Below, piece after piece: positions 9,001 through 24,000 of a stretch of 64,000 nucleotides of DNA. The stretch is from Escherichia coli (GTDB taxonomy: Bacteria; Pseudomonadota; Gammaproteobacteria; Enterobacterales; Enterobacteriaceae), in NCBI RefSeq assembly GCF_041886205.1, contig NZ_CP169030.1; one strand, given 5' to 3'. The position numbers are program-made. The first letter of the stretch is position 1; every line of letters starts with the position of its first letter.

Positions 9001-12000
9001 TGCCGCATAATGATAATATAAGTAAAGCCCCGAAAATTTTTCGGGGCTTTACTTATATTATCATGACTTCCACTCCCTGAACTGTTCGGCAATCATCCAT
9101 AATGCTTTGTTGATTCGGATATCACCATCAATACCCGTAATGGCTCTTGTCCTGGTATTTTTACCGGAGGCACTTCGCCCCGACAGTCCACCTTTTATCA
9201 TATTCTCCTGAACCCGCTGCCAGGTTGTCCAGAGATCGTTCTGTTTATCCTCCCAACGACGGGGAGTAATTATTTGTTCAGGCGTCACTGGTGTTTTATT
9301 TTCATCTTCATACCTGACCATCAATGCAGCTCTGCCAAATAAATGTTGCTCGTCACTGTTAAGATGTATTTCTTTCATCGCCTCCATATTATCAGTAACC
9401 TTATCAAAGACACCGAGCACTTCATACGCACCCTCGATAACCTGCCCGACAATATCACCTTTATGTGGAACGCGGATTTCGCCAAAATTATTTCCGCACA
9501 CCAGACCATTTGTGCAGACAAAACGAAAAATTCCGGGGATCATCTGATAACTGGATGAACCATCATGTGAATTAAGCAGGATAATTTCAGGAACTTCTTT
9601 CCCGTTAATATTCCCTTCCCTGCGAAGACGTAACATATGTTTACTGTATTCGCGGCGTCCCAAATCGCGAACCCGACTCTGACAGGCAAAGAACGGCTGG
9701 AAACCTTCATCACGTAACTTATTGATGATATTAATGGTTGGAATATATGTATAACGCTCACTCCGGGATTCATGTTTATCACCGGAAAAGACAGACGGCA
9801 CAAACTGCATTAATTCATCATCCGTTAAAGGACGCTCACGGCGAATGGAATTATACCGACCAAAACGGGAAGCTAATCGCATAACAGTAACTCCTTTATG
9901 AAGGTATAAAATTAATAAAAATTTTTTCGCGTAATATCATCCTCCCTCGGTTATCATTAACAATAAGATAACAATTCCGAGGGAAAGGACCATCAAATCA
10001 GGTCAGTTCGGGACTGACCAACCTGCCGGGTGAAAAGCAGTAACAGCGCGATCAGCTCATCAGCGTTTTTTCTGACAAGAGGGGTATGATTCTCCAGGCT
10101 ATCCAGTAAGTCATGCAGCTCATTATTGACCTGGTGGAGCACCTTAAAAAGCGCCCCTGAATCCTGGTTGCTCTGATAGGCGAGACTGGCCTTAACAGCG
10201 TTATTCTGCATGATCCCGATTTGTGCGATTGCGTCTTTCTGCTGATCGCCTGTTGGCTGATAAGTGGTGTTAAAAGAAAATGCGCTCATGTTTCATTCTC
10301 CTGTGTCTGATGTTTTCAGCCCCCATCATCTGTTGAGTTTCGGGAGCCGCGGTTTTGACGTTTTGCGGGGACCTGCTCTTTGCTCCCTCCGGTATTCACC
10401 ATCACCTGTTTGAGAACCTTCGCCGCATGGGGCATCACTGCCACGGCCGGAAACGACTGTCCGGGGGCAGACCGCAAAAGTTTTTGCCTGCTTTTGGGCA
10501 AAAAGTTTTGCGGGATGTGCATTTCACCCCTGGACTGGCGGAGACGGTTGTGGCTGTCTATGCCCCCGGCGACAGGGGCTTAAACAGGTGAATCGCACCG
10601 GACAGAACAACGGGCAGGGACCCGCCGCAACGACGTGAAGCGCGGTTTGCGAAACGGCGTTGCTCCTTACATCCCGGCGTCTTTTTGCCGGGATGCCGGG
10701 AGCGCAGGTCACGGCGCGACAAGGGTGGCGCGACCGTTCCGGTCGCTGAAAACCCGGGTTTTTGCGTCAGGGATGGAAGCCGCCAGGGCGGAGACAGCTC
10801 CGCTGGCTCCGTTCACGACAGCCCGCCCCGCCAGGGGGACGCCCGGAAAAGGCACTGCCAGGAGAACAACAAAACAGAGAGTAATCAGAGCAGCAGAAAA
10901 AAGAAGAACAGTAGCAGGAACCGCAACATCATCAGTAACAGACAAATGACAGGTCTGAAAAGACAGAAGCCCACAGCAGAACGTCCGCGTAATGAAAGGG
11001 GCGGCGCGTCAGCGCGGCCTTTTTTACCAGCACTGACACCGTGTGCCAGTGCAGCCTCTGGCGACGCTACAGCGCTGCCAGTTCATTCAGGATATGGGGG
11101 TTTCGCTCAACCATTTTCATCAGCAGGATGGCTTGTTTATTAGGTTTAGCCAGTCCCTGCTCCCAGTTCTGCAGGGTAGTGACGCCGGTATGTAAATACT
11201 GTGCGAAAACAGCCTGTGATAGCTTCAATTTTTCGCGTACCGCTTTCACCTCATCGGGCGTCATAGTGACGGGTTTTGCGCTGACCTTGTGTGTTCTCAA
11301 AGTTTTTTTGCCAGCATTAAACTCTCCCCACGCAGCCATGCCTTCCTGCAATTCGCTAAAAATATCACGATCTTTCATCAACGCCCCCTTCGTCTGGCCT
11401 GTTCAAGCATTTCGCGTAAAATATCGCGCTGTGCTTTCGTCAAATCATCTTTCTGGTCTTTGTCATACAGGGTGAACAACAGAAAGTGGGATTTTTCCAG
11501 ATACCAGTAGTAAATCACTCTGATGCCGCCGCGTTTCCCCTTGTTACGCCTTGCATCCCCAAACCGTACCTTGCGCAATCCCCCGGTATGCTGGATAACA
11601 TCACCGCATAACGGATTTTTCAGCAACATCTGCTGAAACTCCCGAAACTCATCATCCGTGAAATATTCAGCACGATGCCGCTCGAACGGCGGCAACTCGA
11701 CAAATAGTGCTTCCATAACACCTCACAAAATCCCCTTTACTTGGGGATATTATACCCCCCAACATGGGGACTCTTCAATTGAGTTCAGACAAAACCTCCT
11801 GCTTTAGCAAGCGTTTCATAGTGCCCAATCAGAAGTTCCAGCCCATCCGCTTTTTTTTGAAAACGGCTGTATGTGAAACCATCGCATCGATCAGTGCATC
11901 AAGCTCTGCGCGGAGCTCCAGTATCCTGGTTGTAAACGTATTTTTGCCCTGGCTGGTCATCCAGTTTAAATATGCCTGTACCGCGCGTTCCTGCATGATT

Positions 12001-21000: not shown

Positions 21001-24000
21001 GGCGGCTCACCTCATCAGTTAAAAGCGCGTTTCAGTTCGAGTGTGCGGAGCACCTGCCCGAAGGCCGTGTTTTTCATGGCGGGGATGTGTACACCACGCC
21101 CCCGGTGAAAACTCCTGGCAATGTGTCGTCCGAAGGCTTTCAGCACGGGGTCAATTTCCGGCGCGGGGATGTCTTCGCGTCTGAAACGGGGATGACGGCG
21201 GGGCTTTACAGCCGCTGCGGAAGGTGAAACAATACTTACTGTCATAATTTAGCCTCTTATGACGTTAATTAATGAAACCGTAAAGACTGTTCGTGCAGTC
21301 TCTGCGGTGTGGATTAAGCAGGTCCCTGACCTGCTTTTTTCATATCTGCATCTGACGCTTTCCGGTGTTTTCCTCCTTCTGTTCCTGCGTTCTCATTACC
21401 TGCCAGCCGGATGACTGACAGAACAAATAAATGCGTATTGCCGGAGCCTGAAATAAATCCTGATTTTTAAAGAACATCACCCGTTGAGTTTCGGGAGCCG
21501 CGGTTTTGACGTTTCGCGGGAACCTGCTGCTGTATTCCCTGTGGTATGAACTTCACCCGTTTGAGAACCTTCGCCGCAAGGGGCATCACTGCCACGGCCT
21601 GACGCACCTGTCCTGGGCAGAACGCAAAATTTTTTACCGGGTTTTGGGTAAAAAATTTTGTGGGCTGTTCATTTACCCTGGACAGTCAGTGCGGCAGGTT
21701 GTGGCTGTATCAGCCCCCGGCGACAGGGACTCATACGGGTGTGTGGCACCCGGCAGGCAATGAGCAGGGACCCGCTGCAACGACGTGAAGCGCGGTTTGC
21801 GAAACGGCGTTGCTCCTTACATCCCGGCGGCCTTTTGCCGGGATGCCAGGAGCGCAGGCCACGGCGCGACAAGGGCGGCGCGACCGTTCCGGTCGCTGCA
21901 AGCCGGGGGTTTTGCGTCAGGGATGAAAGCCCGCCAGGGCGGAGACAGCTCCGCTGGCTCCGTTCACGACAGCCCGCCCCGCCAGGGGGACGCCCGGGAA
22001 AGCCATAAACAGGAGAGGAACGGAAAGAAGAGGAAGAAGAACAGTAACCACAGAAACATAACATCAGGAAAAAACATTCCGGACACATCACAAACGGGAA
22101 GGGAAGCGGGCGACGCGCCAGCGTGGCCCGCTTCCCTTCCGGCAGGCGCCAGCCTGCCAGGGGTTTTCGCGCGGGCTGACAGGCGGCCTCCACCGCCTGC
22201 CCTGTATCACCTGTGCCTGCTGCCCTGAAGGATGTACTGACCACCCAGGAAAACCGCCTGCTGATTCGCCACAAAATCGCAGATTTCATCAACAATCTGC
22301 GCGGTGGTGAGCGGTTTCTGCCCCATTTCACGACGCCGCGCATTAATCACGGCCCTGTAATTACGCAGAATTTCGCGGGTTTCCGTGCTGATATTCATTA
22401 CCCGTTCTCCCCGTCCAGCGCCTGACGCATCACCCGCATAATCTCACGTTCTTCCCTGACAAATGCGTCACCGTCGCCCCCGTTCTCGCTCCCTACAGCA
22501 TGGAGGCGATAAATTTCACTACCAGCCATCACCATCACTTTTTCCAGCAGCACCGCAGGGACTGTTACAAGACGGTTTACGCGCTTTTCCTCCATCAGTT
22601 CACGAACAACGTCGTGAACAATGCTGACATCAGCACCATGCTCAAAGGCATCGTCCAGCCGCTGCATGACGGTTTCCAGCTCATCGTCTGTCAGACTCCA
22701 GTCCTGGGCTATGTGACGCACATCCCCACGGGTCAGCACCACGGCAAAAACGCATTCACTGTCCGGCACGTCTGTATCCAGCACTTCGCGGATAATTTCT
22801 TTAACAGTACAGTACATGTTCTCGTCTCCTTTACAGGGGCGGCATCGCCGCCCCGTCCGTTAATCAGTCCAGTGCTGCGTAAATCGCGTTACATTCGGGG
22901 TGAAATTCGATGTGGCTCCACAACTGCGCATCGCGCATCCGGTAAAGGTGTGTCAGTCCCGCATCCCCGCTGTCGTGGTACAGCCACAACTGGCGGTTAA
23001 TCACAAGGGAAGTCAGGATGATACCTGCGGCATCAGCACTCACAGTGCGGTCAAACCAGTTTTCACCGTTGACCAGATGAAAACGGTCGCCATCCGGCAT
23101 CATGTAACCGCCACCGTCCGGCAGGCGGATGAAATGCCAGAAGCCTCCCTGATATTCCGGCATCATTTTTTGCGCCAGCGCGTACACATACGCCTCGGCA
23201 TACAGAAAATCGTTGCCAAACAGGTAAGGCAGAAAAGAAAGGCGGTCGCACTCTTCAACGTTCAGAGTGACAGATTTCGCATACTGCATGGGATTTCCTC
23301 CGTTGTTCACATATTCCGCGACACCGGGCGGTGCCGTGCCTCCATCTTTGCCGGGCCTGCAGGGTTGCAAGGGCGCAAGGGAAGCCGCAGCCTGACGCAC
23401 ACGGCTGACGGGAGTTGGAGGGTGAGACCGCGAAATCTGAGCGGGTGAACGACCGGAAAATCACGGCAGACGGGAAGGAGGGACCGGGTGACCGCAGCGG
23501 TTCACCTTACCTTGCAACCCGCCCGCAGAAGCCCGGCTACGATGGAGGCACGGCACAGCCCGCACACGACGCTGAGGCTACAGAGTTGAAAACCCACAAG
23601 GCCATGCCCCGCATGGCCGGGTAAAGCGGAGCCGCCGGCGACTTCCTTTTGCTCTGTCCGGGGACAGGCAGGAAAAGGCGGAGATTTTTCCCCGCCAGCG
23701 TCATCATTTCCGGATTTTCGCCAGTGCATCCGCCATGCTGCGGATTTCATCCCGTGCCTCCAGAACAACCTCCCGCAGAATATCCCGGTCAAACCAGCGA
23801 CGGGACGGTTCATCCGGTATACGCAGCACATCACAGACCAGACCACTGGCCAGGATATGCTCCACACACTCACAGACCAGGTACATTTCCACAGAAGAAA
23901 AACGGGCGCCACGGTTCAGAATGGCATCGAGCACCACGGGCAGATTTTCGTCATCTTCATCAAGCCAGCAGGGGTAATCGCTTTCCTTCACCACCAGGCG

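Follow-up and report, generated by a model that had tools for sequence, protein, structure and literature searches.

Repeat units and gene sets of the leading region

The window analysed here, a stretch of 64,000 nucleotides (nt) of Escherichia coli DNA (contig NZ_CP169030.1), contains four copies of a GC-rich non-coding repeat, R1 to R4, in what is, to judge from its sequence matches, an IncF-type leading region. A first-pass annotation of the sequence had proposed that these repeats are single-stranded DNA (ssDNA) promoters related to the Frpo and ssi elements, each serving an early-expression cassette, and we followed up this proposal computationally. More than 5000 plasmid records match the region, the best of them with 88% coverage at 94% identity. 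Their annotation names traJ, traM, an SLT transglycosylase, DUF932, hok, psiA, psiB and a ParB-like gene, together with DUF905, ssb, a methyltransferase, DUF3560, DUF1380 and an antirestriction gene, and Pfam scans of the open reading frames (ORFs) of the window agree with it.

The nic sequence of the origin of transfer (oriT), GGGGTGT followed by GGTGCTTTT, was found as an exact match on the plus strand at 8158-8173, with the nick between 8164 and 8165; we take it to be the site cleaved by TraI of F. The plus strand is therefore the transferred strand (T-strand). Across nic from the leading region lie traM, traJ and FinP, with FinP and the traJ leader just below it, and the leading region runs from 8165 upward, the plus strand entering 5' end first. 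All genes downstream of the repeat units are on the minus strand and have the plus strand as template, so that the nic orientation and the strand logic of the first-pass annotation stand.

A repeat search identified exactly four direct copies of a 0.65-0.75 kb unit on the plus strand, at about 10290-11027 (R1), 12800-13475 (R2), 18190-18930 (R3) and 21470-22145 (R4), within a few bases of where the copies had been placed before. When R2 was compared with the whole 64 kb by blastn, only the other three copies were returned and no fifth. R2 is 95.1% identical to R3 over 608 nt, 91.9% to R4 over 544 nt and 87.4% to R1 over 637 nt, and the spacing between R2 and R3 is 5388 bp. In a four-way alignment, a nearly invariant core of about 560 nt is followed by a variable purine-rich tail. 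The repeats have a GC fraction of 0.57-0.69, whereas the low-GC genes beside them have 0.37-0.49, and the four units occupy about 2.8 of the 14 kb from nic to 22145, or roughly 20%. In Rfam, they are not covered by any family.

ORFs of 60-224 amino acids (aa) overlap all four copies, and some public records annotate a 'hypothetical protein' there. That the repeats encode small proteins nevertheless deserves practically no credence. The recurrent plus-strand ORFs of about 105 aa shift frame among copies because of 1-nt insertions and deletions, none of the five tested ORFs over the repeats has a Pfam match, and most records leave the region unannotated. A coding role was rejected on the unconserved frame and the absence of Pfam matches, and the earlier description of the repeats as GC-rich and non-coding is borne out.

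Each copy directly flanks one gene set on its upstream side in the minus-strand sense, as had been described. The R1 set consists of a 98-aa ORF of the 'MSAFSF' family (9993-10289), which lies directly behind the unit, and a DUF932 gene (9061-9882). That of R2 comprises a YgeA-like 89-aa ORF (12530-12799), a 110-aa ORF, an 81-aa ORF and a toxin-antitoxin pair (11067-11716). R3 precedes ssb (probable start 18186), DUF905, a ParB-like gene, psiB, psiA and hok/sok, so that establishment genes adjoin the unit, and R4 precedes a 76-aa ORF (21015-21245), DUF3560 and a methyltransferase gene. All four sets are on the minus strand. In R1 to R3 the first ATG lies 46-48 nt from the base of the hairpin described below, whereas R4 is the only unit without a direct fusion to its first ORF, from whose ATG it is 243 nt away. 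The R4 spacer holds the antisense RNA AS-pc01 (Rfam RF02875, 98.9 bits; 21240-21339, plus strand), which is antisense to the 5' end of the 76-aa ORF and has its terminator at 21316-21336.

Homology to Frpo and ssi elements

Reference Frpo and ssi sequences were taken from the supplement of Samuel et al. 2024 (PMC11541004). F ssiD (D90178, 351 nt) matches each of the four copies from end to end on the plus strand, with identities of 94.9% (R1), 87.9% (R2), 83.9% (R3) and 79.7% (R4). For the Frpo2 fragment of the same study, placed by its authors before an anti-CRISPR gene (PMC11541004), the corresponding values are 85.6%, 98.5%, 93.4% and 92.2%. E-values of these ssiD and Frpo2 matches range from 1e-78 to 1e-157. 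By comparison, ssi1-3 of ColIb-P9 match the central 80-115 nt or so only, at 76-82%. The F plasmid itself (NC_002483) carries two copies of about 600 nt each, 5389 bp apart, and both align with the units of the window over about 555-770 nt at 84-96%. The similarity to Frpo/ssi on which the first-pass annotation depended is thus present along the whole of ssiD in every copy.

Based on this homology and on the strand, fold, covariation and gene context computed here, we assign the four repeats with high confidence to the class 1 ssDNA promoters (the Frpo/ssi/ssp1 family), to which promoter activity, timing and priming would extend by homology to the experiments on F and pESBL. The Frpo identity is correct and already known; these units are textbook matter in the field, since Frpo and class 1 promoters have been described in several published studies. 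The review PMC7690428 recounts that the 1997 description of Frpo presented it both as an ssDNA promoter formed by a hairpin and as an origin for primer RNA. For the F and pESBL homologues it has been shown that sigma-70 RNA polymerase begins RNA on the single strand, that the genes behind the units undergo zygotic induction and that the RNA serves as primer for the complementary strand (PMC9849209, PMC12672017, bioRxiv 10.64898/2026.01.09.698686). F Frpo elements are inactive as duplex DNA (PMC9849209, PMC12672017), and class 1 was named, and its start sites mapped by 5' rapid amplification of cDNA ends in pESBL, by Wen et al. 2025 (PMC12672017). A plasmid paper of 2013 already had leading-region genes transcribed from Frpo in imperfect direct repeats, there also called R1-R3 (PMC3817090). 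By analogy with F, ColIb-P9, pESBL and pO26-CRL125 (PMC9849209, PMC12672017, PMC3817090), the idea that each repeat heads an early-expression cassette would hold in the window as well.

Priming is the other activity known from the family, and the units might be regarded mainly as priming sites (ssi) for complementary-strand synthesis, with mRNA secondary. According to the same review, PMC7690428, Frpo was first found as ssiD, an RNA-polymerase-dependent complementary-strand origin. Transcripts of the class 1 units, called ssp1a and ssp1b, prime conversion in vivo and speed it in a rifampicin-sensitive manner (Fraikin et al. 2026, bioRxiv 10.64898/2026.01.09.698686). The window also contains a homologue of a different ssi, F ssiE, 91% identical over its full length, at 8760-8948 between the SLT gene and DUF932, near oriT. 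However, the units are fused to a Shine-Dalgarno (SD)/ATG junction at a fixed 46-48 nt (the R1 leader, including this junction, spans 10290-10336, and the R2 leader 12800-12844, both on the plus strand), and F no longer makes the early proteins when Frpo1 or Frpo2 is deleted (Couturier et al. 2023, PMC9849209). Priming and promoter roles are not exclusive. We therefore regard a mainly priming role as unlikely and keep to the reading of the units as class 1 ssDNA promoters.

Folding and covariation of the main hairpin

The plus strand of each copy folds, as ssDNA, into one long imperfect hairpin of about 320 nt, and no shuffled sequence folds equally well. The hairpins span 10337-10655 (R1), 12845-13163 (R2), 18233-18551 (R3) and 21488-21805 (R4), with the first and last position of each forming the outer pair. 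Predicted free energies are -115.2 kcal/mol for R1 (z -10.3), -112.3 kcal/mol for R2 (z -9.4), -105.1 kcal/mol for R3 (z -7.4) and -111.9 kcal/mol for R4 (z -11.3). R3 is the weakest of the four because its 5'-arm variant CACCCG faces a non-matching 3'-arm variant. The same 5'-arm variant is matched by the 3'-arm variant CGGGTG in R4, a natural covariation within the window. In all four copies the hairpin is stronger on the plus strand than on its complement, by 8-16 kcal/mol, and this T-strand asymmetry recurs in F ssiD, ColIb ssi1-3 and the Serratia, insect-metagenome and Salmonella homologues.

An alignment of eight sequences, including the Serratia and insect-metagenome homologues, was used to examine covariation. 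The consensus of the main hairpin has 78 pairs, and 95.9% of its cells are paired; when the partners are slid, the figure falls to 36-47%. Compensatory changes are seen in eight pairs, and none of 500 shuffles attained the observed covariation score (0.106). Since the sample is small and the sequences are related, the covariation supports the hairpin and does not prove it. A G.T pair at alignment columns 124/251 is kept in all eight sequences and is pairable on the plus strand only. Stability, strand asymmetry and covariation together agree with the stable plus-strand hairpin that had been anticipated.

Could the structure act as RNA instead, in a long 5' leader of minus-strand mRNAs that start at conventional duplex promoters, so that the repeats, as terminator plus leader, would mark the limits of the operons? 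The minus strand folds well too (-91.5 kcal/mol and z -9.6 for R2), and a GC-rich RNA hairpin stands at the upstream edge of every unit. Yet the fold loses 8-16 kcal/mol on the complement, the G.T pair kept unchanged among divergent homologues would turn into a mismatched C.A in RNA, and the homologous F elements are inactive as duplex DNA (PMC9849209, PMC12672017). A consensus scan found no duplex sigma-70 site of at least 9/12 inside any repeat on either strand, nor at a repeat edge; this fits silence as double-stranded DNA, although a consensus scan cannot show inactivity. The consensus also contains 33 G.T against 4 A.C pairs, a count that we rejected as proof of strand because the structure was predicted on the plus strand and the count is biased toward it; the strand argument therefore rests on the comparison of minimum free energies. 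Overall, the RNA-leader explanation is highly improbable, and a structure formed by the T-strand itself is the reading we retain.

Candidate promoter boxes

We searched the folded T-strand for promoter hexamers. The best candidate core is predicted to lie at 12918-12956 in R2, with equivalents at 10410-10448 (R1), 18306-18344 (R3) and 21561-21599 (R4), all on the plus strand. It consists of a paired TTGAGA, a 17-nt spacer and CATCAC in an internal loop, followed by CCACGGCC, in which GG takes part in conserved G.T pairs where the start is predicted. The core falls within a 40-nt block of which 39 positions are invariant across the four copies and both F copies. We rank TTGAGA-17-CATCAC first because of this invariant block, the combination of a paired -35 with a looped -10, and a start on conserved G.T pairs. 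Its absence from ColIb-type units counts against this particular candidate.

Alternative sites score 5-7/12. One would use a conserved unpaired bulge, GTTCATTTACCC, on the 3' arm by the A/T-rich apex (12981-13017), at 13024-13035 in R2 with equivalents at 10517-10529 (R1), 18412-18423 (R3) and 21667-21678 (R4) on the plus strand. In duplex drawings and sequence comparison, the bulge motif is conserved in F, ColIb-P9, Salmonella, Klebsiella and insect-metagenome homologues. Judged by the predicted fold, the bulge may be an alternative site for a pre-melted -10, which would then lie in its conserved 8 nt (TTCATTTA). Another is TTGYGG-N15-18-TGGACW on the 3' arm. It occurs in most lineages but was rejected, because its score is 5-6/12 and the key A is missing from the second position of the -10.

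Two further candidates were discarded. TTGACG (5/6), which stands at the base of the hairpin, lacks a -10 partner at a distance of 15-19 nt; F-like units keep it, but it is missing from ColIb and Salmonella units and falls outside the duplex of the Frpo2 construct that worked. TTGAGA-17-CATACT (9/12) is found in D90178, whereas the complete F sequence NC_002483 and all copies of the window read CATCACT. D90178 differs from NC_002483 at several positions, of which this is one example.

Several observations weigh against the assignment of the units as active ssDNA promoters, or at least against the site proposed. Canonical -35/-10 hexamers were not found in the relaxed T-strand scan, in which the best score was 7/12, and the apparent 9/12 falls to 7/12 because NC_002483 and the window read CATCACT. 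In the shortened Frpo2 construct, which was active in vivo, the candidate -35 TTGAGA would have no pairing partner, so that it may be the wrong site. In addition, the R3 hairpin is 7-10 kcal/mol weaker than those of the other copies, and R4 is set apart from its first ORF by the 243-nt spacer with its antisense RNA, so that the four copies need not share equal activity.

A structured extension beyond the hairpin

At roughly double the length of the published Frpo (328-351 nt), each unit includes about 190 nt beyond the hairpin, followed by the purine-rich tail. On the plus strand, this extension covers 10656-10843 in R1, 13164-13352 in R2, 18552-18739 in R3 and 21806-21994 in R4, and the tails run to about 10844-10990, 13353-13440, 18740-18890 and 21995-22060, respectively. 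Folded alone as a single sequence, the extension has local GC hairpins only, with z about -2. A global structure taken from a single sequence looked like an effect of composition and was dropped, the conserved hairpins emerging only through comparative analysis. In R2 they are HP2 (13178-13203), HP3 (13238-13254) and HP5 (13299-13319), with an invariant CCGTTCACGACAGCC at 13318-13332, all on the plus strand.

The comparative consensus was built from nine sequences of five plasmid lineages. It contains 59 pairs, with 96.5% paired compared with 37-45% in slid controls. Compensatory double changes occur in nine pairs, against a shuffled mean of 4.2, and none of 500 shuffles reached nine. The stems are preserved by compensatory changes in Klebsiella and Citrobacter units that are about 72% identical overall. 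The extension is more stable on the T-strand in seven of the nine sequences, by a mean of 4.2 kcal/mol, an asymmetry weaker than that of the main hairpin. It accompanies the hairpin at at least 13,842 places in at least 5000 plasmids. A region outside the published 328-nt element thus appears to be under structural selection.

We found no published role for the extension. From its modelled structure, we suggest only tentatively that the extension may constitute a distinct and as yet uncharacterised module with a function in class 1 ssDNA promoters, a proposal that we consider doubtful. One possibility is that it acts as an insulator or terminator for the upstream cassette. Another, by analogy with the roadblock function of ssp2, is that it might be a barrier or loading site that times when complementary-strand synthesis reaches and extinguishes the promoter. 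Nothing else in the finding is to any degree new.

Two smaller observations concern the extension. The 23-nt CGCTGGCTCCGTTCACGACAGCC (13310-13332 in R2, and equivalents) is invariant in all six F-type copies, and across the Klebsiella and Citrobacter units its unpaired part, GTTCACGACAGC, hardly varies; conservation of GTTCACGACAGC despite its predicted single-stranded state suggests a putative binding site. The loop of HP3 (10730-10746, 13238-13254, 18626-18642 and 21880-21896) reads GAA in R2, R3 and both F copies and the reverse complement, TTC, in R1 and R4, with identical stems. An inversion of this loop is of the kind produced by template switching at hairpins.

The first-pass annotation had also held that each repeat begins with a hairpin that would terminate the preceding gene set. 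A GC-rich RNA hairpin does occur at the upstream edge of all four units, right after the preceding stop codon; it lies at about 10999-11018 in R1 and 18898-18917 in R3, and that of R4, at about 22097-22140, is strong. However, a clear U-rich tail follows only the hairpin at 13504-13516 near R2, a terminator that belongs to the hok locus and not to the repeat, and a looser one follows the R4 edge hairpin. The hairpins are thus general, and the U-tract expected of a terminator is clear at R2 and loose at R4 only.

Further hairpins of the transferred strand

A homology-independent scan was carried out by folding the T-strand in sliding segments of 300 nt at the published criterion of -75 kcal/mol or lower. 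It recovered R1 to R4 and two unrelated segments, 23321-23620 and 25901-26200. The first reaches -86.7 kcal/mol in 300 nt at a GC fraction of 0.66. Its surroundings, 23250-23720, share 87.7% identity with the intergenic stretch that immediately precedes the antirestriction (ArdB-like) gene of F, where published work places ssp2, a class 2 ssDNA promoter and replication roadblock. The second reaches -95.4 kcal/mol at a GC fraction of 0.68 and is the strongest T-strand hairpin in the scan. It lies within 25800-26332, which is 91.9% identical to F 53721-54251, upstream of a DNA methylase gene, where F has its class 3 promoter placed, and by this similarity 25901-26200 is a candidate class 3 ssDNA promoter. 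The four repeats have no sequence similarity to these homologues of F ssp2 and of the methylase-upstream region. With the two extra hairpins, the leading region probably has six ssDNA promoters and not four: the set of four described earlier is real but incomplete, both additions lying beyond 22145.

Probable module exchange and the genes between R1 and R2

Neither PLSDB (72,556 plasmids) nor 5,426 complete E. coli genomes gave a match that covers at least 80% of the module from R1 to R2 (11028-12800). Its toxin-antitoxin pair, a RelE/HigB-like toxin (11378-11716) and an MqsA-family antitoxin (11067-11381), both on the minus strand, is 97% identical to one of a Klebsiella aerogenes plasmid, and the YgeA-like first ORF behind R2 is common. 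The 81-aa ORF (11829-12074) and the 110-aa ORF (12143-12475), also on the minus strand, are orphans, without a match in Pfam, NCBIfam or megablast searches. Genes behind Frpo-type promoters are enriched in anti-defence functions (Samuel et al. 2024, PMC11541004), and the two orphans are therefore reasonable candidates for testing.

The closest relative, NZ_CP027458, has three full units and a 157-bp internally deleted remnant between two small ORFs, and the two small first-ORF families stand there in reversed order relative to the window. In the remnant (NZ_CP027458.1 3748-3905), the first 101 nt of the unit are joined to about 57 nt of the extension, and the hairpin is gone. R1 to R4 are themselves mosaics of Frpo1-type and Frpo2-type segments; R1 as a whole is of Frpo1/ssp1a type, while R2 combines a Frpo2-type hairpin with Frpo1-type flanks. 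Together, the unique module, the remnant, the swapped ORF order and the mosaic copies indicate recombination between dispersed units. Crossover between repeats of this type has been documented as the cause of gain or loss of a 9.7-kb module (PMC3817090).

These same observations would suit an explanation in which the repeats are chiefly recombination substrates or mobile-element remnants that shuffle modules, with any promoter role incidental. The units have, however, no terminal inverted repeats, transposase or target duplications, and the purifying selection on base pairing and the fixed T-strand orientation would be left unexplained. We hold this explanation to be very unlikely. Because the repeats are dispersed, recombination is better read as a consequence of class 1 promoters being present in several copies.

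Between psiA and R2 lie, on the minus strand, a mok/hok-type ORF (DUF5431; 13702-13914) and the sok antitoxin RNA (Rfam, 92.6 bits; 13854-14025). The psiA gene appears shortened: its longest ORF (14131-14664, 177 aa) matches positions 81-236 of the 237 of the PsiA model, and no ORF covering the N-terminal part was found up to the psiB stop (14131-14849, minus strand). It may be a frameshifted pseudogene.

Proposed course of events and its meaning

In the proposed mechanism, the plus strand would enter the recipient during conjugation, 5' end first, from the nick at 8165, and the roughly 320-nt segment of each unit would fold on arrival into the long imperfect hairpin. The hairpin would offer host sigma-70 RNA polymerase a duplex promoter that is nonexistent in the double-stranded plasmid, and transcription would proceed toward lower coordinates, with the plus strand as template, into the adjoining gene set. 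An early burst of SSB, PsiB, the DUF932 protein, the methyltransferase, the toxin-antitoxin pair and small unknown proteins could then precede complementary-strand synthesis, which the same transcripts might prime. Once the DNA is duplex, the hairpin would be lost and the promoter would fall silent.

For the window, the repeats would thus mark the genes likely to be expressed first in a new host, including the toxin-antitoxin pair and the 81-aa and 110-aa orphan ORFs. The finding leaves the understanding of leading-region function unchanged. Its residual value is in the conserved extension, the orphan early genes and, as a by-product for the field, a precise anatomy of the whole repeat unit.

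Distribution and comparison with known systems

A survey by Samuel et al. 2024 counted 13,089 Frpo homologues in 6,006 conjugative elements (PMC11541004). In our searches, the core matches at least 5000 plasmids at at least 13,615 places, about 2.7 per record. Most of a spread sample of 60 plasmids carry two or three copies, and seven of the 60 carry four or five. The repeats occur in 3762 of 5426 complete E. coli genomes, at a median of three places, and Klebsiella and Serratia plasmids reach six to nine. Four copies are accordingly in the upper range for E. coli plasmids and not unusual overall. A scan of species-representative genomes (596 Gb) with a 15-nt motif was uninformative because the motif is too short for a search space of that size: all 120 loci were chance matches in unrelated taxa, and none of them contained a Frpo.

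RNA polymerase also starts RNA on folded ssDNA, as it would here, in the single-strand origins (sso) of rolling-circle plasmids and the hairpin promoters of phage N4. In those systems, sequences, hosts and polymerase needs are unrelated to those of the repeats, and sso primes DNA synthesis without driving cassette mRNA. Closer in place are the class 2 and class 3 promoters (ssp2 and ssp3), leading-region hairpins of the T-strand that meet the same folding criterion but share no sequence similarity with the four repeats; ssp2 is also a replication roadblock, a role not reported for class 1.

With ssi1-3 of ColIb-P9 and pESBL, the class 1 units of IncI1 plasmids, the repeats share an upper core of about 80-115 nt, the A/T-rich apex, the bulge and the T-strand asymmetry, and in both cases the units divide the leading region into cassettes. 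The difference is that the identity of 76-82% applies to the core only; the lower stem is unrelated, and the extension is shared for its first 70-110 nt or so.

The nearest systems are the two elements of F. R1 shares with Frpo1 (ssiD, ssp1a; Masai and Arai 1997; Couturier et al. 2023) an identity of 94.9% over 351 nt, the apex variant, the strand relative to nic and the position before a small ORF and DUF932 (ygeA and ygeB in F). R1 is, however, followed by the 'MSAFSF' ORF and not by YgeA, whose relative stands behind R2. From Frpo2 (ssp1b), the window differs in having four copies where F has two, and in R3 arm variants that pair less well. Conversely, R2, R3 and R4 all carry the Frpo2-type apex, and R3 sits at the Frpo2/ssp1b position before ssb...psiB psiA, with the 5388 bp between R2 and R3 nearly equal to the 5389 bp of F.

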